Source: a virus
Lineage: Duplodnaviria; Caudoviricetes
DNA: 64,000 bases
Direction: 5' to 3' (one strand)
IMG/VR virus record: IMGVR_UViG_3300033121_002101
Coordinates: 96,001-160,000 of that record
Positions 28,648 through 43,418 of this stretch are shown here, in pieces. The notes under the pieces were generated by a model. The model searched no databases and had not been told where the DNA came from. It saw only the letters and a list, made by a program, of their open reading frames with translations. Each line of letters begins with the position of its first letter. Positions within the stretch are counted from its first letter, which is position 1. The position numbers and the translations under genes were made by a program.

Positions 28648-29553
28648 ATGTATATAACAAGCAACAACATGAATCACTTGTATTACGAACTAGTAAAACA
28701 AGTTACTGAGAATCCAGATTTTGTTTCAAACCCTCGCGGAATGAATACAAAAGAGTCGTTAGCATCTACATTCATGCTTACAAATCCAAGAGCAAGATTA
28801 ATTGATTCAAAAGAACGAAAAGTAAATTATTCTTTCGCTGTCGGAGAGTTGATTTGGTATTTGTCTGCAAACAACAGTCTCAGCTTTATTAAACGCTATA
28901 ATTCTAGACTTGAGCAATTTTCAGATGATGGGACTACATTAAATTCTGCTTACGGCCTTAGAATTTTTGGAACAAATAATAATAGAGAAGCTTCTCAGTT
29001 TCAAAATGTTATAAATGAGCTTGTTAAAGATAGATCTTCAAGAAGAGCAGTCATACACATTTTAGATAAAAACGAAGCATTCAATAAGTCAAAAGACATA
29101 CCGTGCACATGTACGTTGCAATTTTTTATTAGAGATAATAAACTTCATTTGCATACGCACATGAGATCGAATGATGTTTTTTGGGGTGTACCGTATGATG
29201 TTTTTTCTTTTACTGTTATTCAAGAGATAATGACCGATTTACTAAATTGTGTTGATGGCTTTAATTTAGGATTAGAACTTGGAAATTATTATCACACAGC
29301 TGGTTCTCTTCATGTGTATGAACGTCATTTCAAAGATGCAGAAAAGATACTTGAAGAGTATAAGTCATTTGACGGTTCATATACTGAAATGCAACCGATA
29401 TCATATGATGATTCATTGTGTCTAGAAAGATTAGAAAAAGATATTTCTATTCATAAATCAATTGAAATTCCATCTGAATTAAAATACAGTGGAGTTAGTT
29501 GGATGATTGACATGCTTTACAAAAAATGGGGACAACCAATTGAATCAGAATAA
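28648..29553 (+). CDS. Thymidylate-synthase-fold enzyme, probably dCMP hydroxymethylase type
   Basis: SAYG.R, SRRA, DIPCT, MRSNDVFWGVPYD (Asp where ThyA has Asn), SLHVYERH. Confidence 0.85.
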   Translation: MYITSNNMNHLYYELVKQVTENPDFVSNPRGMNTKESLASTFMLTNPRARLIDSKERKVNYSFAVGELIWYLSANNSLSFIKRYNSRLEQFSDDGTTLNSAYGLRIFGTNNNREASQFQNVINELVKDRSSRRAVIHILDKNEAFNKSKDIPCTCTLQFFIRDNKLHLHTHMRSNDVFWGVPYDVFSFTVIQEIMTDLLNCVDGFNLGLELGNYYHTAGSLHVYERHFKDAEKILEEYKSFDGSYTEMQPISYDDSLCLERLEKDISIHKSIEIPSELKYSGVSWMIDMLYKKWGQPIESE

Positions 29554-30142
29554 TCATTTCATAGCTACTCTGCTTGACAACAGTAAACAGAGTCTTTGCA
29601 ATGTTAGTGCTATTGATATAGGCACTGTTACAGATGTTGATGTGAACAATTCTTTGTGTGACAAATGCAATGGACTTTTGATAAATCCATTTTTAGATGG
29701 AGTTACACACATAAACGTTTATAGTAAAGCACACACACAACTTGGAAAATTTCTTTCAAACTTTGCATTATCTCCAATAGAAACAGAAGACGGAAATTTT
29801 AAAAGCATCGAAGGGTATTGGTATTGGTTATTGTCAAAAGATGATAGATTGAGAAAACTTTTTGGTTTTTCTGCAAAGAAACTAGGAAGATCTATCACTG
29901 GCGAAATTAATAAAGATGATGACGAAGATTTTAAATTAAAAATAAAGATTGCTTTTGTAAAAAAGATTTCATTAAATGAAAAAATGTGGAATGAACTTAG
30001 AAATACAAAAGTTCCGCTTACACATTACTATGTGATGAATGGTATAGCTGTGTTTCCAAAGCATGGAAATTGGCTCGTAGAGTTCATAGATGATATGAGA
30101 ATCGGAGAATCAAATGAACCAGAATCGTATTTACAGAGATGA
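29507..30142 (+). CDS. NADAR-like protein (T4 gp30.3-like)
   Basis: HINVYSK...LGKFLSNFA...FKSIEGYWYWL...AKKLGR...LTHYY. Confidence 0.65.
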   Translation: MTCFTKNGDNQLNQNNHFIATLLDNSKQSLCNVSAIDIGTVTDVDVNNSLCDKCNGLLINPFLDGVTHINVYSKAHTQLGKFLSNFALSPIETEDGNFKSIEGYWYWLLSKDDRLRKLFGFSAKKLGRSITGEINKDDDEDFKLKIKIAFVKKISLNEKMWNELRNTKVPLTHYYVMNGIAVFPKHGNWLVEFIDDMRIGESNEPESYLQR

Positions 30143-30515
30143 AGTAGTTCTTGGCAAAGAAATATTTGTATTCGGTTCAAATATTCGTGGCCTTCATGGT
30201 GGCGGTGCTGCACTGTTCGCAAAGAAATATTGTGGTGCTATAATGGGTGAAGGTGATGGCCCACAAGGCATGAGTTATGCGCTTCCAACAAAATATTACT
30301 TCGATCGTTCAGTAACAGTTGAAAGACTTGCTGATAATGTTGAAGCATTTAAAAACTATGCGAGAGAAAATAGTGATAAAATGTTTTTTGTAACTCGCGT
30401 AGGATGCGGGCTAGCTGGTTTTAAAGATGCTGATGTCGCACCAATGTTTACAGATGCACCTTTAAACTGCGTATTACCAACAGCGTGGAGATCAATTGTA
30501 GAGGAAGCACCATAA
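30114..30515 (+). CDS. Macrodomain-like phage protein (A1S_2505-type)
   Basis: IFVFGSN..G.HGGGAA, SYALPT, FFVTRVGCGLAG. Confidence 0.75.
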   Translation: MNQNRIYRDEVVLGKEIFVFGSNIRGLHGGGAALFAKKYCGAIMGEGDGPQGMSYALPTKYYFDRSVTVERLADNVEAFKNYARENSDKMFFVTRVGCGLAGFKDADVAPMFTDAPLNCVLPTAWRSIVEEAP

Positions 30516-30976
30516 TGGAATTAAGAGAATTTGTTCAAGAAAATGAATTAATAGATCCAAGAAGCACAGATCTTGTAGAAAACTATTATAAAGAGTATTC
30601 AGCAAGATCTGAAAAAGATATGCTTTCTCACTGCTTCTCTTTACAAGCTTCTTTTATGGAGATGCTTAGAGCAGATGGCCGGTTTCCGAAATGGCCACTT
30701 GACTTATCTTCAAAAGAAGAACAAAGACAGCTACAAACTTATCTGTGGGATACTGTCAGAGAGATATCAGAAGCCTCAGCAGCTCTTAAGAATAGAATAC
30801 ATAGAGTTAAAGAAGAGCCATTCATGAGGCAAGATTTTCTTGAAGAAATGGGTGATGCTTTTGCTTTCTTTATGGAAAGTCTTTTACTCGCTGGTTTCAC
30901 AGCAGAAGACTTATACAAAGAATATAAAAGAAAGAATTTTCACGTTACATGCGCTCTACTTACAAAAGAGAGATAA
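30515..30976 (+). CDS. All-alpha (MazG/dimeric dUTPase-like) NTP pyrophosphatase, candidate dCTPase
   Basis: REISEA...FLEEMGDAFAF...EDLYKEYKRKN. Confidence 0.75.
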   Translation: MELREFVQENELIDPRSTDLVENYYKEYSARSEKDMLSHCFSLQASFMEMLRADGRFPKWPLDLSSKEEQRQLQTYLWDTVREISEASAALKNRIHRVKEEPFMRQDFLEEMGDAFAFFMESLLLAGFTAEDLYKEYKRKNFHVTCALLTKER

Positions 30977-31031
30977 CAAGCGCTTATCATGAGTAATGAT
31001 ACTTTGAATAGCGACTTGTTTTAGAAAAGGA

Positions 31032-31622
31032 GTGTATATGATTGCAAGTGGTAATATTGAGTCGACTGATAAATTTGATTTTTCTAAATACAAAAAGACA
31101 AGTTTAGAGTGGTGGGAAAAAACAAAGTCTTCAAATGAAAATTTGAATAAGTGGCTTTCACGACAATATGTTGGAGAGATTGCAGCTGTAAACATGATGT
31201 CAGAAATGCTCTTAAGGTTTGGTTCTGAACTTTCAAAACAAGATTGGAAAGACCTTTGGAATATTATGCGCCAAGAAGCAACACATGCTTTATGGATTAA
31301 AGAATTGTTAGACGCAAGAGGCATTAGTCCAGAGCATGATCCTGTTCACGATAAAAGATACTGGGCTGAAGTTTTACCGAATATTAAGAATTCAACTGAT
31401 GCATTTGAAGCAGCTTTTCACGCTGAAAATATGCGCCTAGATAGAATAGCTGTTATTGCTTTCGATGATTCAGCACCAGTTGACATTGTAAATGTTTTTA
31501 AAAAAATTCTTGTTCATGAATCATGGCATGAAACATTTTTTAATAAAATGAGGAACAACAGCGAAAAAATGTCAAAGTATCATGAGCGCGGCTTAGATGC
31601 TTTGAATTTGATTTTAACATGA
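31032..31622 (+). CDS. Ferritin-like diiron protein
   Basis: E (GEIAA), ExxH (QEATH), E (HAENM), ExxH (HESWH). Confidence 0.75.
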   Translation: MYMIASGNIESTDKFDFSKYKKTSLEWWEKTKSSNENLNKWLSRQYVGEIAAVNMMSEMLLRFGSELSKQDWKDLWNIMRQEATHALWIKELLDARGISPEHDPVHDKRYWAEVLPNIKNSTDAFEAAFHAENMRLDRIAVIAFDDSAPVDIVNVFKKILVHESWHETFFNKMRNNSEKMSKYHERGLDALNLILT

Positions 31623-31858
31623 ACAATGAACAACTTGTCAGAATAGTTGGACAAGTTGTGTGCCGGCAAGTAGGAACAGTCAATACTGTTTGCTATTTTG
31701 CCGGCACGCATTTGTTTCAGATGGAATTACAGTTTGAAAAAGATATGACACTCGAAGAAGTGGAAAAGTGGCCGTTTGTTCATCACACATTAAAAACTAA
31801 ATTATTTTTAATGTCACAATCAAATGATCGCGAATTTGTTCTCGACAGGGTATTATAA
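31619..31858 (+). CDS. Hypothetical protein
   Basis: 79-aa ORF overlapping the upstream stop. Confidence 0.45.
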   Translation: MNNEQLVRIVGQVVCRQVGTVNTVCYFAGTHLFQMELQFEKDMTLEEVEKWPFVHHTLKTKLFLMSQSNDREFVLDRVL

Positions 31859-31865
31859 TACATAA

Positions 31866-34800
31866 GTGCCATCAATGATAAAAGATTTCGTAGGACTACA
31901 CAACCATAGTGCATTTTCATTTCAAGATGGTATAGCAACTCCAGAGGAATTGGTTGTTGCTGCAAAAGATAGGGGTTTAAATGCACTTGCGATAACTGAG
32001 CATGGCCATTGTCATTCACATGCTCAGTTTCATTTTGCGTGCAAGAAGCATTCTTTCAAAGGAATATTTGGTGTAGAAGCTTACGTTATAAATTCTATAT
32101 CTGAATGGTCTACGCTACGTGATAAGTTACGTAGTGAGCGTGCTGCGAGAAAAAATAAAGTAGAAACAGACGATTCTGATATAGACATAGAGTCTGCTTC
32201 TGAGCAAGATAAAAATGCTCGTCGTATTCTTAATCGCAAAGGCCACCTTGTTTTGCTGGCCAAGAATGACAAAGGCTTATCAAACATATACCAGATTGTC
32301 CACCGTGCTCATAGAGATGGCTTTTATCAAAAGCCTAGGGCCGATAAGGACATATTACGTGAGTTATCTGGTGACATCGTGGCATCATCTGCATGTATGG
32401 GTGGTGTCATATCAAATAAGTGTTGGCAGTTGCAGAGGAATGAATGTGATTGGGCTGAAGTTGTAAAGGAAGCTGAAGAGTTTGATGACATATTCAAGCG
32501 CGGCAATTTCTTTTTAGAGCTTCAATTTAATGAGCATGAAAATCAAAAGTTCATTAATGAGTGTATGATTCGTCTGCATAAAGAGACTGGCATACCACTT
32601 TCTGTTACAACTGATGCTCATTACGTAAAAGATGATGATTGGCAAACGCAACAGTTGCTTCACATGCTTTTGTCACATAGAGGCAAGCGTCCAATAACAA
32701 TGAATTCTCTTCCCGAGAATTATGATTTCAAAGTGAAGTCACTTTATGTAAAGTCTGCCGAGCAGATGTATGAAGCTTATCTTCGTTGGAATCCAGAATT
32801 ACCACGTGAATTAGTCGATCAAGCATTTGCAAATGTTCTTGATATTAATTCAATGATAAGTGACTATAACCCAAACACATCACCTCGTTTGCCAACTTTG
32901 AAATACGAGAGCCCATTAAAAGAAGTTGCTGAAAGAGCAATTGAATCTCTTAAACTAAGAGGTTTGGCAGATGATGAAAGATACACACAAAGACTTCTCT
33001 ATGAAGTAAAAGTTATTAAAGATAAGGGTATTGCACCGTACTTTCTTGTCGTAAAGCAAATCGTTGAACGCGCAAAGAAAGAAATGTTAATTGGCCCAGG
33101 CAGAGGGTCGGCTGCTGGAAGTCTTTTGTGTTACCTTCTTGGAATCACAAACATTGATCCGATTGAACATAAATTGATGTTTGAAAGGTTCATCAATGTT
33201 GACCGAATGGAATTGCCAGACATCGATCTCGACTTCGAAGATGTTGATAGAGTAAAAGATGTTTTGCGTGAAATGTTTGGTAGTGACAATGTCGCTTGTA
33301 TTTCTGCTTATGGAACAAATCAGATCAAAGGTTTGTTAAAAGATGTTTGCAGAGTGTATGACATTGATCACACTGAAGTCAATAAAGCAAATGCTTTAAT
33401 TGAACGTGAACTAAAAGCACTCTACAACGAAGGTGAAACAAGGTCTACTGTAACAATCAAAATGGAAGATGTATACAGGCTTAGCCCTACTTTTCGTGGG
33501 TTACTAGAAAAATATCCACAGATAGAGCAACCAGTTAACAGATTGTACGGAAGACCGCATCATGTAAGCAGACATGCTTCAGGTGTTGTTATCGGTGATA
33601 ATTTACCAGCAGAAACAGCTGTGTTTTATTCTGGTGCTGCTGGACAAAAGACATTACAAACATCATTCACTGATGGTATTGTCAATAAAGACTTGTCAAA
33701 CATGGGACTTGTTAAGTTTGATATTCTTTCATTGGCTACTCTTTCTGTTATTAGAAAAACATGTGAAATTGTTTCTAAGAATACCGGAAGAGATATAAAC
33801 GACGTAATGGATGAAATTGACCCGAAGAAGATTGATTTTAATGACCAACATGTCATGAAGACTGTTTTCTGGGAAGGTAACTTAACTGGAATATTTCAAT
33901 CATCTCAGCAAGGAATGAGACGACTTTTACAGCAAGTTAAGCCTGAAACTTTTGAAGATGTTGCTGCTACATGTGCTCTTTACAGACCAGGTCCGCTTGG
34001 ATCTGGAATGGATCAAATGTATGCAAGAAGAAAAAATGGATTGGAAGATGTTTCATATGACCATCCAATTCTTGAAAGCATTTTAAAAGATACGTACGGC
34101 TGCTTGATTTATCAAGAGCAAATGCTTGAAATAGGCAGGCAGCTTGGTAACATGTCTTGGAAAGATGTTAACAGACTTAGAAAGCTTTTCTTAAAGAAAG
34201 ATAAGTCTAAGCAAGATGATTTCGTAAAGAAAGAAGAAGTTGAACTAAAAGAAAAACTTGTAGCTGGTGTCATGTCGCATGGCATGACAGAGAAACAAGG
34301 AAATGATTTGTGGGATATGTGCGGTAAGTTTGGTGGCTATGGGTTTAACGTAGCACACGCAAAGTCATACGGCATGGTAACAATGCAAACCGCATATCTT
34401 AGAACATATTATCCTGTTGAGTTTTTAGCTGCTGTTTTAGCAGTTGGACAAACAGGTGAAGTACAAGAAGACATTGATGACATTAGACGTCAAGGGTTTA
34501 ATGTACTTCCGGTAGATATAAATCTTTCAATGGATGACTATAGAGTTGAGGGAAATGCAATAAGACTTTCTCTTTCTGTTGTCAAAGGCATTGGTAAGTC
34601 AGCTGTTGAAAAGATTATGTCTAATCGACCATACACATCATTCAGTGATTTTCTTTATCGCTCTGGTGCAACAAAAACTTCAATAATGCCATTGATAAAA
34701 GTTGGAGCTTTTTATTCACTCGTAAATGAGTTTGGTGATAATATAGATGATGGAGTCCATCGCCAAGCATTGCTTGACACATATGATGTATTTACAGAAG

Positions 34801-35336
34801 CAAAAGGAAATACAAAAAGAGGTAGGCAAGATTTTGAATTGATTAGAGATGAACTCATATCAAAAATCGATAAAGTCAAGCCAATCTCCCCAATAGAAAT
34901 GAGTGCTTGGGAATCTGAATTCTTATCATTCAATGTTCTTTATAGTCCATTTTCAATGAATGGAAGATCAGAAAAAGTTAAAATGTTTGCAGATGCTGGC
35001 GCAATTTCAACATACGATGAGTTTGTTGAATCAGATGAGCTTGTTACAAGAATGCCAGTCATTATAAAAGAGTGGCGTGAGAAGATCCAAAAAAATGGAC
35101 AGATGATGGGCTTCTTAAAATTTGGAATGAAAGACGGAAGAGAATTTGAAGCTCCAGCATTTTCAGGTATATGGAAATTTGCTTCAAAGATTTTAAGCAA
35201 AGGTGATCTTTATATTGTTACATTTAACAAAAAAGAAGAAGATCCGCAAAGGATGATAATAGGTAAGCCCGGGTGGTTTCACTCAAGAGAAGATTGTATA
35301 AAATACTTTATAAGAATAGACGATTTGGAGATATAA
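31866..35336 (+). CDS. dnaE: DNA polymerase III alpha subunit (family C)
   Basis: PHP domain LHNHS..S..DG; GPGRGSAAGSL; FERF; PDIDLDF; HASGVVI; KFDILSL; GYGFNVAHA. Confidence 0.97.
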   Translation: MPSMIKDFVGLHNHSAFSFQDGIATPEELVVAAKDRGLNALAITEHGHCHSHAQFHFACKKHSFKGIFGVEAYVINSISEWSTLRDKLRSERAARKNKVETDDSDIDIESASEQDKNARRILNRKGHLVLLAKNDKGLSNIYQIVHRAHRDGFYQKPRADKDILRELSGDIVASSACMGGVISNKCWQLQRNECDWAEVVKEAEEFDDIFKRGNFFLELQFNEHENQKFINECMIRLHKETGIPLSVTTDAHYVKDDDWQTQQLLHMLLSHRGKRPITMNSLPENYDFKVKSLYVKSAEQMYEAYLRWNPELPRELVDQAFANVLDINSMISDYNPNTSPRLPTLKYESPLKEVAERAIESLKLRGLADDERYTQRLLYEVKVIKDKGIAPYFLVVKQIVERAKKEMLIGPGRGSAAGSLLCYLLGITNIDPIEHKLMFERFINVDRMELPDIDLDFEDVDRVKDVLREMFGSDNVACISAYGTNQIKGLLKDVCRVYDIDHTEVNKANALIERELKALYNEGETRSTVTIKMEDVYRLSPTFRGLLEKYPQIEQPVNRLYGRPHHVSRHASGVVIGDNLPAETAVFYSGAAGQKTLQTSFTDGIVNKDLSNMGLVKFDILSLATLSVIRKTCEIVSKNTGRDINDVMDEIDPKKIDFNDQHVMKTVFWEGNLTGIFQSSQQGMRRLLQQVKPETFEDVAATCALYRPGPLGSGMDQMYARRKNGLEDVSYDHPILESILKDTYGCLIYQEQMLEIGRQLGNMSWKDVNRLRKLFLKKDKSKQDDFVKKEEVELKEKLVAGVMSHGMTEKQGNDLWDMCGKFGGYGFNVAHAKSYGMVTMQTAYLRTYYPVEFLAAVLAVGQTGEVQEDIDDIRRQGFNVLPVDINLSMDDYRVEGNAIRLSLSVVKGIGKSAVEKIMSNRPYTSFSDFLYRSGATKTSIMPLIKVGAFYSLVNEFGDNIDDGVHRQALLDTYDVFTEAKGNTKRGRQDFELIRDELISKIDKVKPISPIEMSAWESEFLSFNVLYSPFSMNGRSEKVKMFADAGAISTYDEFVESDELVTRMPVIIKEWREKIQKNGQMMGFLKFGMKDGREFEAPAFSGIWKFASKILSKGDLYIVTFNKKEEDPQRMIIGKPGWFHSREDCIKYFIRIDDLEI

Positions 35337-36479
35337 ATGTCATTAAAAGATAAGCAAGTGGTTGTTATACCAACAATAAGAGAGAGTAGTTTTTATCGTT
35401 TTATTGATGAGTGGCTAAATTACACTGATGATGGAGATGATCAGTTTCCAAATAATTTAATAGTTGTTCAAGACAATCCATGTAAGATAATATCATCACT
35501 GCCATATGTTAAAAGAGACATTAATGTAAAATACTTTACATGGAAAGATATTGATGATTCTTCTATGTCTCAAAAGTGGATTATTCCAAGAAGATCAGAT
35601 ACAGTAAGAAGCTTTGGATATTGGTACGCATTTATTAATAGCACAAACTATGAATGCATAATGACATTAGATGACGATTGCTATCCATCAAAAAATGTAG
35701 CAGACGAATATAATTGGAATGAAAAGCACCATGAGGCTCTAACAAATAATTCAAAGTGGTTCAATACTCTAAATTCAGTTAAACCAAGAGGTATTCCGTT
35801 TAAAAACATTGGTGCAAAAAAAGTATACTTGAACCATGGAATTTGGAGAAATGTTCTTGATTATGATGCACCAACACAGCTTGTCGCGCCAATAGCAGAA
35901 GCATATTCTTTAAACAATGCAATTGTTCCAAGCGGTATGTATTTTCCGTTTTGCGGTATGAATGTCGCATGGCTCAGAGAACTAACTCCGTTGATGTACC
36001 ACATGCTTATGGGATGTGTTTGTGTTGATGATATGCCTGATAAGCATGTTAAGAATGTTAGTAGATACTGCATTAGAACTGGTGATCAAACAAATAAAGG
36101 CTCGCCACTTTTTAAACTACCGTTTGATAGATTTGGCGATATTTGGTGTGGCATTTTAATGAAAAAGATTGTAGACCACATGGGGCTATCTGTATCAACA
36201 GGTACTCCATACATTCACCATGATAGAGCATCAGATCCATTCGTTAATCTTTGCAAAGAAGCAAATGGAATCAAAGTAAATGAAATATTTTGGGAACGTA
36301 TAGATTCTATTGAGTTACCAAAGTTACTTGATTCAAATGATATAACGCAAGTGAGTGCTCAGCATTATGCATTTATTGGAAGCAAGATGGAAGAGCTTTT
36401 TAAAGATGTTGAGCATAGCTGGTATTTTTCTATGCTTGGAGATGCAATGGTTGAGTGGGCAAAGCTTTTTATCAAGTGA
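35337..36479 (+). CDS. Reversibly glycosylated polypeptide / UDP-arabinopyranose mutase family (GT75-like)
   Basis: IPTIR, IVVQD, RSFGY, TLDDDCYP, RGIPF, NHGIW..VLDYDAPTQL, FPFCGMNVAW.REL.P.MY, RFGDIWCG, TGTPYIHHDRAS.PFVNL.KE..GI. Confidence 0.9.
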   Translation: MSLKDKQVVVIPTIRESSFYRFIDEWLNYTDDGDDQFPNNLIVVQDNPCKIISSLPYVKRDINVKYFTWKDIDDSSMSQKWIIPRRSDTVRSFGYWYAFINSTNYECIMTLDDDCYPSKNVADEYNWNEKHHEALTNNSKWFNTLNSVKPRGIPFKNIGAKKVYLNHGIWRNVLDYDAPTQLVAPIAEAYSLNNAIVPSGMYFPFCGMNVAWLRELTPLMYHMLMGCVCVDDMPDKHVKNVSRYCIRTGDQTNKGSPLFKLPFDRFGDIWCGILMKKIVDHMGLSVSTGTPYIHHDRASDPFVNLCKEANGIKVNEIFWERIDSIELPKLLDSNDITQVSAQHYAFIGSKMEELFKDVEHSWYFSMLGDAMVEWAKLFIK

Positions 36480-36877
36480 GTTATAAAGGAACATATAAAG
36501 GAAACAAGTTTAGATCGCTGATGGAATTGTCTTTCATGCTTTTAAAAGAATCTGAAGGGCATATCATTGGTGAGACTTTGCTGTATGAAAAGCTTTCAGT
36601 CTATTATAAGATTGGTAAGAACGGCAGAGATAGAAAATACATCATAGATTTTTATGATGAAAAAAATAAAACAGCTTATGAAGTTAAACCAGCTTCAAGG
36701 GTCAACAACAGAATCAATGTTGCAAAAGCAAAAGCAGCACGAGAACATTTAAAAAAATGTGATATAATATACAAAATAGTTTGTGAAGCTGATATTAAAA
36801 AGTTAATAACTTATAAAGAAGCTAAGCTAATAAAAGATGTCTCTTTTAAGATGAAAAGGAAAAAGCGTGCAAAATAG
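36455..36877 (+). CDS. TnsA-N/T4 gp4-like PD-(D/E)xK endonuclease
   Basis: FRSLMEL...YE...Y...RKYIIDF...YEVKP...K..AA. Confidence 0.75.
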   Translation: MGKAFYQVSYKGTYKGNKFRSLMELSFMLLKESEGHIIGETLLYEKLSVYYKIGKNGRDRKYIIDFYDEKNKTAYEVKPASRVNNRINVAKAKAAREHLKKCDIIYKIVCEADIKKLITYKEAKLIKDVSFKMKRKKRAK

Positions 36878-37433
36878 ATTAGCACTTTTTGTTGTTGGCG
36901 CTGACGGTTCTGGCAAAACAGAAATAAGTACACGTCTGTCTCAAATTACGGGTATAGAAAGATTTAAGTGTCCATCTGAGAAAGAATGGTTTAAGACTAA
37001 TTCATTTCATAAGAATTTAGCATTTGATGCTTTGCTTCCGTCATTTTGTAAGCAAACAAATACAAGTTTTATAAGTGATAGAGGATACCCATGCGAATGG
37101 GTTTATTCTACTTTTTACAAAAGAGAAACTGATTATGTTTTGCTGAAAAACTTAGATAAAATGTGGTCAGTAAATGGCGGTGCAATCTTGCATATGACAA
37201 GATCAGATTATTCAAAAGTTGAAGACGATCTTGTTGATACTAAAGATTTAAAGTCTATTGATAATCTTTACAGAGATTTTTTAAAGCAATCGCTGTTGCC
37301 TTCTATGACAGTGTGCACAGATGATTTTGTAGATGATACATCAATAAACTCATGGATAAAAGGATCAACAAATAAAGTTTTAGACTGGCTTATAAAATTA
37401 GACACATACCACGGAATGCTGTTTGCACATTGA
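36867..37433 (+). CDS. dNMP kinase (thymidylate-kinase-like P-loop)
   Basis: VGADGSGKT; ISDRGYPCEWVY. Confidence 0.85.
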   Translation: MQNRLALFVVGADGSGKTEISTRLSQITGIERFKCPSEKEWFKTNSFHKNLAFDALLPSFCKQTNTSFISDRGYPCEWVYSTFYKRETDYVLLKNLDKMWSVNGGAILHMTRSDYSKVEDDLVDTKDLKSIDNLYRDFLKQSLLPSMTVCTDDFVDDTSINSWIKGSTNKVLDWLIKLDTYHGMLFAH

Positions 37434-37438
37434 GTTTT

Positions 37439-38767
37439 ATGTCTGACGATAAAAATCTAAAAAAAGATCCAGGTGAAAAATATCAAGAAGATTTTTTATC
37501 TGCTGATGGGTCTGTCATTAACAGACGTTACGTTGACAGCAATCTGTTGTCACATGATTTAAGAAAAAGAGTAGATGCTGCAATAAGAACAAAAGTAAGG
37601 CATATGACAGGATTCAACAAGAAAATAAAATTGCAGCAAAGCGGATTGAGAATAGGATATTCTTTTTGGGGTTTTCTTGGTGATCACAAAATGAGTGATG
37701 AAGGTGATAGACTTTCAACACCAGACGGTAATGCAACATATTCATGGTCTTTTATTCTAGAGGCTGTTAGAAGAGGCCACAGAGTAATACCGATGATGCC
37801 AGATAGAGATAAGCCGGCATGTGATGAATACGGTGTCGCAAACTTTGAATCAATAGCGCAGGCACATAGAGTTACTGTTTACACACACTTGGTTGAATCT
37901 ACAGATGTATTTCATGGAAACGGTAACAGTGAAAATGATAAGTTTCCAGAATTAGATGTGCTTGTACTTGAGTGGAGATTTCCAATAAAGGGAAGAAATT
38001 TTGGTTTGTTGCCAGTAGATCCTGGTTACCAACCAGATTTTGACAGACAGACTGCGTTACTAAAGCATTACAGTGACAAGAAAACTAAAATAATAATTTG
38101 GGATTTAGACTTAAAATTAACAGAAGAAGATGAAAAAACTTGGCCGATTTCTTCAATCATTGAAACAAGTGTACATCCAATTCAGCAAGTACACAAGCGC
38201 GTGCAAGTTGAACCACCTGTTTATATTGATTCATTGATGGAATGGCCGACAGTTTTGGCAACAAATATGTTGTCATATATTGGTTCGAGGTATGAACGTG
38301 ATGATGTAATTGATCACTGGATTAGACCAATTGCAAATAGAGAAGGGTGTAGAGGTAAAATACACTTTTACGGAAATTGGATGAAAGATCTATCTGAGTT
38401 AACATTGCGTTGGCCTGGAGTATGTTTTAATGATAGAGTAACTTTATCTGAGTTTAAAGAGATATTAAGATGTGCAGCAGGAGTTCCTCTGCTTGCAAAA
38501 GAAGAATATAGAAAAAGAGGTTTTATAACGCCAAGAGTATGGGAAGCTCTTGCATTCGGTTCAATTCCTGTTGGACTACACGGTCATGCTGCAATATCAA
38601 AATATACTGATTTTGTTGCAAAAGATCCAGACAATTTAAAAGAAATTTCACTTGAATTACTTTCAATGAGTCTTGAAGACCGTGATAAAGAAAGAAAAAA
38701 AGCAATTGACAAGATTAAATTTATGGATGTAAAATATTTTATGAATACGTTAGAAGGACTTTTCTGA
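37439..38767 (+). CDS. GT-B glycosyltransferase, T4 beta-glucosyltransferase-like (candidate DNA glycosyltransferase)
   Basis: YIGSRYER, FYGNW, GFITPRVWEALAFG (compare T4 BGT FITLRVWE). Confidence 0.75.
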   Translation: MSDDKNLKKDPGEKYQEDFLSADGSVINRRYVDSNLLSHDLRKRVDAAIRTKVRHMTGFNKKIKLQQSGLRIGYSFWGFLGDHKMSDEGDRLSTPDGNATYSWSFILEAVRRGHRVIPMMPDRDKPACDEYGVANFESIAQAHRVTVYTHLVESTDVFHGNGNSENDKFPELDVLVLEWRFPIKGRNFGLLPVDPGYQPDFDRQTALLKHYSDKKTKIIIWDLDLKLTEEDEKTWPISSIIETSVHPIQQVHKRVQVEPPVYIDSLMEWPTVLATNMLSYIGSRYERDDVIDHWIRPIANREGCRGKIHFYGNWMKDLSELTLRWPGVCFNDRVTLSEFKEILRCAAGVPLLAKEEYRKRGFITPRVWEALAFGSIPVGLHGHAAISKYTDFVAKDPDNLKEISLELLSMSLEDRDKERKKAIDKIKFMDVKYFMNTLEGLF

Positions 38768-40004: not shown

Positions 40005-40886
40005 ATGACTATATCTGCAAGAATAGACACAGATTCAATAAATGAATCTGGTGATAGAATAACAACATGGATTTTAAGATATCCACGTTTTATTCATGCT
40101 GACTTTATGACTCACAGAGTGTTTAGTAGGAATGGATCGTCTTCAAGAGCTAGGCGTGCTACTAACATTCTAAAAGAAGTTGTTTTAGATCCCGTTGTCC
40201 CAATAGAGTGGGGCAAAAATGGAAAAGGCATGTCAGCAGATAAGACATTAAGCAGTTTTAAATCTTGGCTTTGCAAGAAAATTTGGTTGTCTACAAGATT
40301 GCCTGTCGTAGCGTCTGTTTGGCTTTTAAACAAGATTGGTTTGCACAAGCAGTGGACGAATAGATTACTTGAGCCGTGGGCTCACATCACTGTTATAATG
40401 ACTGCAACTGAAATGGATAATTTCTTTGCATTACGCGATAGCGATAAAGCACAACCAGAAATTCATAAATTAGCCTCTCAAATGAAGAGAGAATACAACA
40501 ACTCTATTCCTGTACTTTGCATGAAAGGTGAATGGCACATTCCTTTGTTAACACAAGCAGAAAGAGATAGACTTACATCTGTGAATTTACGTTCTAGAGG
40601 ATTTTTTCTTCCAGATAATACAGGTGAAGATCTGAAATGGCTTTCTGAAACAATACGTGTATCAACAGCAAGAGCTGCGCGTGTATCGTACAACAGAACA
40701 GAAATGATTAAATCTAAAGAAGAAGATTTAGATTTGCATGACAAGTTAAAAAGTGATGGTCATTGGTCACCATTTGAACACTGTGCATCAGCTGAACCTG
40801 GTGTAGAATGGGTTGGCAATTTTTATGGTTGGGCTCAATATAGAAAATCATTTATGAACGAATCAGGTTCAGATAGGAATTCATGA
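40005..40886 (+). CDS. thyX: FAD-dependent thymidylate synthase
   Basis: RFIHADFMTHRVFSRNGSSSRA, NRLLEPW, FFALR...AQPEI, ARVSY, HWSPFEH. Confidence 0.93.
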   Translation: MTISARIDTDSINESGDRITTWILRYPRFIHADFMTHRVFSRNGSSSRARRATNILKEVVLDPVVPIEWGKNGKGMSADKTLSSFKSWLCKKIWLSTRLPVVASVWLLNKIGLHKQWTNRLLEPWAHITVIMTATEMDNFFALRDSDKAQPEIHKLASQMKREYNNSIPVLCMKGEWHIPLLTQAERDRLTSVNLRSRGFFLPDNTGEDLKWLSETIRVSTARAARVSYNRTEMIKSKEEDLDLHDKLKSDGHWSPFEHCASAEPGVEWVGNFYGWAQYRKSFMNESGSDRNS

Positions 40887-41338: not shown

Positions 41339-41446
41339 ATGTTTGCAAATGTAAAAAATTCAACGTGGATTTTTCTTGGAATTGTTCTTTTTCCTTTTTT
41401 GCTGTTTTACATTGCTATGAAAGCTATACAAAGATTTTTTGAATGA
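41339..41446 (+). CDS. Small membrane protein (35 aa)
   Basis: AAGGA RBS, hydrophobic core, ATGA overlap with the next gene. Confidence 0.45.
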   Translation: MFANVKNSTWIFLGIVLFPFLLFYIAMKAIQRFFE

Positions 41447-41922
41447 ATATATTTGTTTTGGATAGAGATCCAGAATTAGCAGCAGCTTATCTTTGTGATA
41501 AGCATTGTGTCAAAATGCCGCTTGAATCTGCTCAAATGCTTTCTACAGTTGTAAACAGTTTTGGCATTGAAACAGAATATAAACCAACCCACACAAAGCA
41601 TCCGTGTACAATCTGGACAGCTGAGTCATTGGAAAATTTTCTTTGGCATTCTTTATTAGCAATCTCTCTTTGTAGAGAGTATACTTTTAGATACGGCAAA
41701 AAACACAAGTCACAAAGTGTTATCGAAAAGTGTACAGATATTTGTTTAGATGGTAATATTAAATTTGAACGAAAAGAAATGACAGATTTCGCTCAAGCGA
41801 TGCCAGAAGAATGTAAAGACAAAGATGCTGTCGTTGCATATAGAAAATACTATATGATGAAAAAAAATGATATTGCAAAATGGAATAAATGTAGAAGTGC
41901 ACCAGAATGGTGGGTGATATGA
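41443..41922 (+). CDS. Pyrimidine-dimer DNA glycosylase (DenV-like family)
   Basis: MNIFVLD...DKHCVKMPLESAQMLST...THTKHPCTIW...EYTFRYGKKH...AYRKYY. Confidence 0.85.
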   Translation: MNIFVLDRDPELAAAYLCDKHCVKMPLESAQMLSTVVNSFGIETEYKPTHTKHPCTIWTAESLENFLWHSLLAISLCREYTFRYGKKHKSQSVIEKCTDICLDGNIKFERKEMTDFAQAMPEECKDKDAVVAYRKYYMMKKNDIAKWNKCRSAPEWWVI

Positions 41923-43418
41923 AAGTTTGTCTTATTATTCCGCCATCACCGTTTCTTATGGATGAAAGAGTATTCCCTTCGCTGGGAATACTTCGCGTTG
42001 CTTCATCATTAGAAAATCAAAATGTAAAAGTAGATCTGATAGATCTTTCAGGTGTACAAAATTATCTTGATGTCGTATCGAAATATGTATCTGAGAATGA
42101 TACTCTGCTGTATGGAATAACATCTACAACTCCGCAATTTCCTGCTGTTTGCAAAATTGCTTGTTTAATAAAGCAAAAAGAAAACGTTTCTATAACACTC
42201 GGCGGGCCGCATGCAACTCTTGTTGCTGCTGCTGTTAAGGGTGAAGATAAAAGAAATGTTGTCGGAAGAGCACATCATGCTATGAATGACATGACTGGTC
42301 GATTCGACACTATAATTGCTGGCGATGGAGAGATGATACCTCACAACGTAATGTTTGGTGGTGGTATCGTTGATGCAGATGATCCAAATGGAAAGTATTT
42401 CATGACAGATTATCAGTACTCAAGTGCTCCAAAAGAAGCCAGATCTCTCATAGATTTAAGTTCTTATCATTACAAGATAGAAGGACATGAAGCAACAACT
42501 CTGATCGCTCAGTTGGGTTGTCCATTCTCATGCGGCTTTTGTGGTGGACGTAAATCACCAATGTTGAGAAGAATTCGTTCACGCCCAACATCAACAATCA
42601 TAAGTGAAATTAGAGACCTCCACACAACGTATGGATACACTGGTTTCATGTTTTATGATGATGAGCTCAATGTTTCAAATTCAATGATAGAATTGATGGA
42701 CTCTATCTATCTTTTACAAAAAGAATTGAATACAGAATTTAGACTTAGAGGCTTTGTAAAAGCAGAACTGTTTACAGATGAACAAGCAGAATCAATGTAT
42801 AAAGCTGGGTTCAGATGGCTGCTAACTGGATTTGAATCTGGTAGTCCTCGTATTCTAAAAAACATCCAGAAAAAAGCTTCTCTTGAAGACAACACTCGTG
42901 CAGTTGAAATTGCAAGAAGACATGGACTCAAAGTGAAAGCGCTGATGTCAATTGGACATCCAGGTGAATCAGAATACACAATAAATGAAACTAAAAATTG
43001 GCTGCTAGATGTAAGGCCAGATGATTTTGATTGCACGATAATAACGACGTATCCAGGAACTCCATACTATGATGATGCTGTTTTGACAGCTCCGGGCATT
43101 TGGACGTATACTGCAAAAAACGGTGACAAACTTCATGCAGATGAAGTTGATTATACAATCACCGCTGATTACTACAAGGGCGCGCCTGGGGGTGGTTATA
43201 AAGCTTATGTACATACCGACCACCTAACATCAAGTGAGCTAGTCACACTACGTGACACGCTAGAGGATTCCGTTAGGCATACGCTTAATATACCATTTAA
43301 CCAATCAGCTGCTGCAATAAATTATGAGCACTCGATGGGCCAAAACATTCCTCAGAATATTTTGAGGAGTTCAAAAAATGATTCTAAAAAACGAGTTTAC
43401 TTGAATCTTGTGAAGTAA
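41919..43418 (+). CDS. Cobalamin-binding radical SAM enzyme
   Basis: PSLGILRVAS, LGGPHAT, GDGE, GCPFSCGFC, YDDE, GFESGS, GHPGES, YPGTP. Confidence 0.92.
   Translation: MKVCLIIPPSPFLMDERVFPSLGILRVASSLENQNVKVDLIDLSGVQNYLDVVSKYVSENDTLLYGITSTTPQFPAVCKIACLIKQKENVSITLGGPHATLVAAAVKGEDKRNVVGRAHHAMNDMTGRFDTIIAGDGEMIPHNVMFGGGIVDADDPNGKYFMTDYQYSSAPKEARSLIDLSSYHYKIEGHEATTLIAQLGCPFSCGFCGGRKSPMLRRIRSRPTSTIISEIRDLHTTYGYTGFMFYDDELNVSNSMIELMDSIYLLQKELNTEFRLRGFVKAELFTDEQAESMYKAGFRWLLTGFESGSPRILKNIQKKASLEDNTRAVEIARRHGLKVKALMSIGHPGESEYTINETKNWLLDVRPDDFDCTIITTYPGTPYYDDAVLTAPGIWTYTAKNGDKLHADEVDYTITADYYKGAPGGGYKAYVHTDHLTSSELVTLRDTLEDSVRHTLNIPFNQSAAAINYEHSMGQNIPQNILRSSKNDSKKRVYLNLVK

Follow-up and report, generated by a model that had tools for sequence, protein, structure and literature searches.

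The 64,000-nucleotide window analysed here (bases 96001–160000 of a 196,531-bp IMG/VR virus record, IMGVR_UViG_3300033121_002101, with an estimated completeness of 96%) contains a gene cluster around dnaE. An earlier note had proposed that this cluster encodes a DNA hypermodification pathway, in which 5-hydroxymethylcytosine (hmC) receives a furanose sugar supplied by an enzyme of the RGP/UDP-arabinopyranose mutase (UAM) family. The cluster falls within the replication and nucleotide-metabolism module of the phage, which comprises a 5'-3' exonuclease, a DnaB helicase, a class II ribonucleotide reductase, a DHH phosphoesterase, DnaE, ThyX, a DenV-like glycosylase and a B12/radical-SAM protein. 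Genes of the module lie on the + strand throughout and are tightly packed. The stop codon of DnaE directly abuts the start of the RGP gene, and the open reading frames (ORFs) for RGP, a TnsA-like endonuclease, a kinase and a glycosyltransferase (GT) overlap by a few bases. For the five genes that the note had singled out, positions and family assignments were all borne out by Pfam, PHROG, PDB-profile, fold and hhalign comparisons (Table 1). We give about an even chance to the pathway as a whole, in which hmC would take the place of cytosine and then receive a furanose made by the mutase.

Table 1. Features of the gene cluster, with window coordinates and family evidence.
Feature	Coordinates	Strand	Evidence
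Thymidylate-synthase-fold enzyme, predicted dCMP 5-hydroxymethylase (T4 gp42 analogue); ~60-aa C-terminal extension	28648..29553	+	PF00303 2.3e-30
MazG-type all-alpha NTP pyrophosphohydrolase, predicted dCTPase (T4 gp56 homologue)	30485..30976	+	phrog_12184 5e-12
DnaE-type replicative polymerase	31866..35336	+	45-56% identity to PHP/DNA_pol3_alpha proteins of related contigs
GT75/RGP-family Mn-dependent NDP-pyranose to NDP-furanose mutase (predicted)	35337..36479	+	Pfam RGP 2.3e-35
TnsA-like endonuclease, probably a mobile insertion outside the pathway	36455..36877	+	Pfam Tn7_TnsA-like_N 1.7e-6
P-loop deoxynucleoside/dNMP kinase, dNK/TMPK fold, predicted hm-dCMP kinase	36867..37433	+	Profile against PDB; AF2 and Foldseek
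GT-B glycosyltransferase, remote relative of T4 beta-glucosyltransferase, predicted hmC-DNA glycosyltransferase; ~70-aa N-terminal extension	37430..38767	+	
ThyX, separate dTMP synthase	40005..40886	+	Pfam Thy1 2.4e-14

The identity of the base is predicted from the thymidylate synthase (TS) homologue. In a PDB search with this protein, the CMP hydroxymethylase MilA ranks first among solved structures (1.5e-39), followed by true thymidylate synthases (~1e-22) and T4 dCMP hydroxymethylase (6e-16). The search alignment places Arg and Ser at the ribonucleotide-favouring MilA residues Lys133 and Ala176. The catalytic Cys (ThyA C146) is present and invariant across the family alignment. In E. coli ThyA numbering, the protein has Asp at L143, keeps D169 and has Asp at N177, a combination identical to that of T4 gp42. 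The last of these lies in a VPYD motif that aligns with gp42 D179, where canonical ThyA has Asn; the canonical ThyA of a related contig has Leu, Asp and Asn at 143, 169 and 177. The gp42 signature recurs in all 33 full-length distinct TS homologues that adjoin kinase or GT homologues, with Glu in place of Asp at 143 in one of them; the count leaves out an N-terminally truncated copy (L014). According to work published in 2026, Asp at N177 marks dCMP as the substrate, Asp or Glu at L143 admits water and so gives a hydroxymethyl rather than a methyl product, and Asn at D169 marks the flavin/O2-dependent 5-hydroxy-dCMP synthases of RB69, DLP3 and RL38J1 (PMC13326640). A 5-hydroxycytosine route through an RB69 gp48-type synthase was rejected because D169N is absent, both the window protein and all 33 full-length homologues having Asp (RSND, as in gp42). 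From Asp at 143, 169 and 177, the product is therefore predicted to be 5-hydroxymethyl-dCMP and not 5-hydroxy-dCMP or 5-methyl-dCMP. The dCMP-type Asp to which the earlier note had pointed is thus accompanied by the remaining gp42 signature, and its proposal of hmC in place of cytosine is supported by that signature and by the lack of the 5-hydroxycytosine one. A separate ThyX, also anticipated there, supplies dTMP and so leaves the TS homologue free for another role; in relatives, the gene at this position encodes either ThyX or a canonical Asn-type ThyA.

For the MazG-type protein, hhalign shows homology to T4 gp56 (Prob 89.7%, E 1.9e-6). Its family has an invariant acidic motif, E..E / EE..D (E93, E96, E120, E121 and D124), and the PHROG that it matches, phrog_12184, is one of nucleotide pyrophosphohydrolases; motif and homology agree with the all-alpha NTP pyrophosphatase named at the outset. 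Its C-terminus (30900-30976) departs from the family consensus, with a short insertion and without the terminal Gly-Tyr common to relatives and T4 gp56. Single-sequence PDB searches were uninformative for the kinase, MazG and GT proteins, and profiles or folds were needed. The kinase profile matched YorR in the PDB (7e-8), and Foldseek placed its AlphaFold2 (AF2) model (pLDDT 84.5) closest to SPbeta YorR, deoxynucleoside kinases (dNK; dAK/dGK) and thymidylate kinases (TMPK), in keeping with a dNMP kinase. Homology to T4 gp1 was rejected (hhalign Prob 2.3%) in favour of the dNK/TMPK/YorR fold group, so that the protein is predicted to be a functional analogue of gp1, an hm-dCMP kinase. Kinase homologues adjoin Asp-type TS homologues at ~30 distinct loci.

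The RGP protein scores 122.8 bits against Pfam RGP, for which the curated cut-off is 23.8. A profile of 32 homologues matched UDP-arabinopyranose mutase (8cid, 1.7e-25) over nearly its full length in the PDB, as well as the GDP-L-fucose/galactose mutase MtdL (2.3e-19). Equivalents of MtdL D87, D109-D111, R159, D195, R257, D260, H287 and R289 are invariant across the 32 phage-family homologues. In the window protein, the DDD Mn motif (D112-D114) and H295 align with MtdL D109-111 and H287, and D88, R151, D175, R265 and D268 align with D87, R159, D195, R257 and D260. These MtdL residues are needed for mutase activity, R159 (OsUAM1 R158) being the nucleophilic, autoglycosylated Arg and H287 a Mn ligand; GT75 enzymes also yield UDP-galactofuranose (UDP-Galf) and GDP-L-Fucf/Galf (PMC9937993). 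With every one of the catalytic residues kept, the assignment to the RGP/UAM family held, and the protein is predicted from its sequence to convert an NDP-pyranose to an NDP-furanose. An attempt to call the nucleotide (UDP or GDP) and the sugar class (pentose or hexose) from MtdL positions 86, 87, 228 and 229 was dropped. The pattern is mixed, with Ser-Asp at 86/87 (MtdL-type) and Gly at 228 (plant RGP-type), and the N-terminal base-binding positions are unaligned; nucleotide and sugar therefore cannot be read off the RGP sequence. The sugar may be Galf, L-Araf or L-Fucf, and UDP-galactose would be the candidate substrate most generally available in bacteria. At E 0.001 there are 1248 RGP homologues in metagenomes, with at least 46% identity to the window protein in all 120 matches listed. 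Homologues in viral contigs were recovered by an alignment-based scan, a single-protein scan having been without success, and tblastn against 50,697 phage records returned only the huge phage LR756511.1.

The GT adopts a GT-B fold, with T4 beta-glucosyltransferase (BGT) and AGT among its best Foldseek matches, at scores that do not separate them from PimA, TarM and BshA. The family profile aligned with T4 BGT over 233 columns in hhalign, at E 8.2e-5 and a moderate Prob of 61%; two other GT-B proteins of the genome, compared with BGT as controls, gave E 0.67 and 0.18. BGT Asp100 (TDIRLPF), the catalytic base of BGT and the residue changed in PDB entry 1nzd (BGT-D100A), aligns with the family-invariant Glu178 in an EWR-PI motif, a conservative change. 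BGT FITLRVWE aligns with FITPRPWE of the GT family (shared FIT-R-WE), as does a GS-R..R stretch. On these alignments the resemblance to T4 BGT appears specific, and the T4-BGT-like enzyme of the earlier note can be kept as a probable remote relative. The BGT model PF09198 matched none of 40 family members by HMMER, and Pfam gave the GT weak Glyco_trans_1_2 matches only; the GT is therefore a candidate member of GT63. At least 451 members of the GT family were counted in metagenomes. The GT had no tblastn match in the 50,697 phage records, nor did megablast of the 10-kb region find any match there, and no cultured relative with the GT emerged. Residues 1-69 (37430-37640) form an N-terminal extension of a beta-hairpin and a helix with lower pLDDT; it is also present in the closest relatives (P0002-P0010) and is missing from the ~375-aa majority of the family. 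From gene context, the acceptor is predicted to be hmC in duplex DNA.

The order DnaE-RGP-kinase-GT is kept in 14 loci from ~11 distinct related contigs, at 41-56% protein identity, with MazG and the TS homologue upstream wherever the flank of these own-clade loci reaches. RGP and GT homologues are co-located on the same contigs. Each of four relatives searched over the full record has exactly one TS-family match, which lies beyond the first 10-kb flank in two of the four. In other lineages, scans with the kinase and GT profiles also recovered compact clusters of the order kinase-GT-TS or GT-kinase-TS that have no RGP, among them clusters on contigs of 300 kb and 416 kb. No RGP was found anywhere in ten such records, one of which is 98% complete. 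The GT family directly adjoins the kinase and an Asp-type TS homologue in at least four gene orders and backbones. Clusters without RGP lie outside the window clade and so give independent grounds for linking the GT family to hmC synthesis, and the lack of RGP elsewhere makes RGP look like an optional add-on that changes the sugar donor.

A second setting for RGP is found on L096, a 52.8-kb contig with a different backbone (DnaB, primase, RNase H, PolA and RecA). Its operon of overlapping genes, dCMP deaminase-TS-MazG-kinase-RGP-UDG-GT, stands just before PolA, and the part from TS to GT is packed into 4.6 kb. No SDR epimerase, GT2 or GT1-group gene was found elsewhere in the record, which leaves the BGT-like GT as the one enzyme seen there that could use what the mutase makes. 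The co-occurrence of RGP, BGT-like GT and Asp-type TS, which the earlier note had put forward as a check, is therefore seen both in the window clade and in an unrelated PolA-type operon. Mapped onto a tree of the GT, the presence of RGP requires two changes, one in the window clade and one in L096; because kinship inflates such clustering, we regard its clustering on the tree as no more than suggestive. The protein between RGP and GT (L096:9276-10028) belongs to the UDG superfamily and could be a glycosylase or binding protein related to a modified base.

Based on these assignments, we propose the following pathway of cytosine hypermodification, with steps before and after replication. The MazG gp56-like enzyme would hydrolyse dCTP to dCMP, which the TS homologue would convert to 5-hydroxymethyl-dCMP using methylene-tetrahydrofolate and water. 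The dNK/TMPK-fold kinase would form the diphosphate and host NDP kinase the hm-dCTP, which DnaE would incorporate. The GT75/RGP enzyme would turn a host NDP-pyranose (UDP-Galp, UDP-L-Arap or GDP-L-Fuc/Gal) into an NDP-furanose, and the BGT-like GT-B enzyme would move the furanose onto the hydroxymethyl group of hmC in DNA. Furanosyl-hmC would then shield the phage genome against restriction and CRISPR nucleases. Protein families, diagnostic residues and the conserved clustering of the genes are what the analysis shows; the enzyme activities, DNA as the acceptor, the connection of mutase and GT, and the sugar are predictions drawn from them.

The logic is that of the T4 glucosyl-hmC pathway (gp56, gp42, gp1 and alpha/beta-glucosyltransferases), and three of the four window proteins are detectably homologous to their T4 counterparts (gp42, gp56 and, probably, BGT). 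The two systems differ in that the window kinase has a dNK/TMPK fold and is not gp1-like, the polymerase is DnaE, ThyX is present, and an NDP-sugar mutase gene with no equivalent in T4 is embedded in the cluster. The GT itself has Glu in place of BGT Asp100 and a 70-aa N-terminal extension. In the Rhizobium phage RL38J1 (Pootjesviridae), which has hexosylated 5-hydroxycytosine, a phage UDP-galactopyranose mutase has been proposed to feed DNA glycosylation (PMC13326640). There too a phage mutase would serve a DNA glycosyltransferase acting on a cytosine derived from a TS homologue, with a TMPK-like kinase in the cluster. However, the RL38J1 mutase is of the FAD-dependent Glf/UGM type, unrelated to GT75, and its base is 5-hydroxycytosine (TS D169N), whereas the window TS keeps D169 and is predicted to give 5-hydroxymethylcytosine. 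RB69 and DLP3 have poly-arabinofuranosyl-5-hydroxycytosine, with D-Araf made through an arabinose-5-phosphate/NDP-arabinose route that uses no mutase (PMC13326640; PMC6024577). They share with the proposed pathway a furanose on a C5-derivatised cytosine of phage DNA, but their base is 5-hydroxycytosine (5hoC), made by a flavin/O2-dependent TS homologue. Characterised GT75 mutases include the plant UAM/RGP enzymes (UDP-L-Arap, UDP-D-Galp) and actinomycete MtdL/Hyg20 (GDP-L-Fucp, GDP-L-Galp) (PMC9937993). The window protein has the same DDD motif, nucleophilic Arg, and Asp/Arg/His catalytic and Mn-binding residues, in a setting, a phage DNA-replication operon, that is new for GT75.

The strongest competing explanation, which we consider unlikely, is that hmC is glycosylated with an ordinary host pyranose (e.g. 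UDP-glucose, as in T4), that RGP feeds a glycan island and that its place beside dnaE is historical. Several observations weigh against a furanose on hmC and fit this alternative. A large glycan island is located at 20-40 kb of the genome (L003:895-19211), outside the window. Its glycosyltransferases comprise GT4, GT9 and Glyco_trans_1_2 proteins and a 1055-aa protein with GT1, GT9 and GT2 domains. The island also carries methyltransferases, a GalE-like SDR epimerase, a truncated-looking UGDH-like dehydrogenase, a cupin, NT5C and heptose-activation genes, with a heptose-6-epimerase-like SDR and a split RfaE (kinase and adenylyltransferase). Epimerases are present in related complete genomes as well, and an attempt to exclude the alternative through a lack of sugar-nucleotide genes in relatives failed for that reason. 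RGP homologues of ~36% identity in L021 and the huge phage LR756511.1 belong to glycan-type clusters without TS, kinase or GT, and GT relatives in other lineages would function without RGP. Although the context of RGP in the window is a DNA-modification operon, its donor pool may be shared with the island. The link from mutase to DNA is drawn from gene context with one clearly independent instance, L096. Against the alternative, RGP, 90 kb from the island, is frame-to-frame with DnaE, the kinase and the GT, and this adjacency holds for every clade member seen. In L096, RGP is placed inside the TS-MazG-kinase-GT operon, in a record where no other GT or epimerase was found. Each computational check put forward in the earlier note came out in its favour, and its interpretation is supported to that extent. 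For its claim that the mutase supplies a furanosyl sugar, the co-occurrence of RGP with TS and GT stood, with the caveats that the sugar may be any of several furanoses and that more distant phage RGP homologues belong to glycan clusters.

The flanks of those distant RGP genes, in L021 and in L029 (LR756511.1 193984-218910, from a 595-kb huge phage), encode sulfotransferases, methyltransferases, GT2/GT4 proteins and a galactose-binding-domain protein, which suggests phage-encoded sulfated or methylated furanose-containing glycans. Phage GT75 mutases would therefore be general furanose suppliers, with the target set by context.

Less likely still is that the GT-B enzyme acts on a protein, a lipid or a small molecule, so that the DNA contains bare hmC or another non-glycosylated derivative and RGP and GT form a separate sugar pathway in the early/replication region. 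The fold scores shared with PimA, TarM and BshA, the weak Pfam matches and the moderate hhalign probability would all allow this. However, the GT family stands directly beside the kinase and the Asp-type TS across its different gene orders, and the catalytic and nucleotide-binding motifs of BGT align with it. We find it very improbable that RGP is instead a glycosyltransferase (GT-A fold, self-glycosylating on Arg) that adds a second sugar or primes a chain, giving di-glycosylated hmC like the gentiobiosyl-hmC of T2/T6: GT75 proteins do have autoglycosyltransferase activity and a GT-A DxD core (PMC9937993), and polyglycosylated phage cytosines are known (PMC13326640), but glycosylation of another acceptor is known for no GT75 member and all residues required of a mutase are conserved in the window protein.

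Slightly short of an even chance, in our estimate, is the broader claim that a widespread, uncultured clade of ~200-kb DnaE phages, together with at least one unrelated PolA phage, makes an undescribed furanosyl-5-hmC, and that the first viral GT75 members, recruited as an add-on module to make the sugar donor, re-specify a BGT-like GT away from pyranose donors. Full-text literature searches returned no publication that connects phages with GT75, RGP or UDP-arabinopyranose mutase, in line with the earlier view of a new phage route through an RGP-type mutase. That view has to be narrowed, and novelty is reduced, because the literature already contains Araf-5hoC adducts and, for RL38J1, a Glf-type mutase proposed to feed DNA glycosylation (PMC13326640). 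What would be new is the combination of the GT75 mutase family, hmC rather than 5hoC as acceptor, and a BGT-related GT family, predicted here in an uncultured phage clade that is abundant in metagenomes. With a furanose attached to hmC, the predicted base would be one that has not been observed before, and the GT75 donor route differs from the two published routes, through arabinose-5-phosphate and through a Glf mutase. Glycosylated cytosines govern the cutting of phage genomes by restriction enzymes, type IV systems, DNA glycosylase defences and Cas nucleases, and new sugars have so far each revealed new pairs of defence and counter-defence. In practical terms, L096 offers a compact five-gene operon suited to heterologous testing, the GT may represent a DNA glycosyltransferase family that is new and remotely related to T4 BGT, and GT75 mutases of bacterial viruses could be tools for NDP-furanose synthesis.

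Several features lie beside the proposed pathway. The 300-kb and 416-kb IMG/VR jumbo-phage contigs (L095 and L097) carry distant GT members beside a TS with the gp42 signature. RGP is missing from both records, and in L095 a weak match to the kinase family (35 bits) adjoins GT and TS. Both are candidates for further glycosyl-hmC phages. The TnsA-like ORF (36455-36877) overlaps both RGP and the kinase. Among the related contigs, only L007, L019 and L020 have a homologue at this position; as the others have none there, the ORF is probably a mobile, homing-type insertion. Two relatives have NADAR and DUF4326 genes between kinase and GT (L005:11744-12208 and L007:12997-13293), of which the window has none. 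Just 3' of ThyX, at 41443-43418, the window encodes a DenV-like pyrimidine-dimer glycosylase (Pyr_excise) and, after it, a B12-binding radical-SAM protein of 503 aa.

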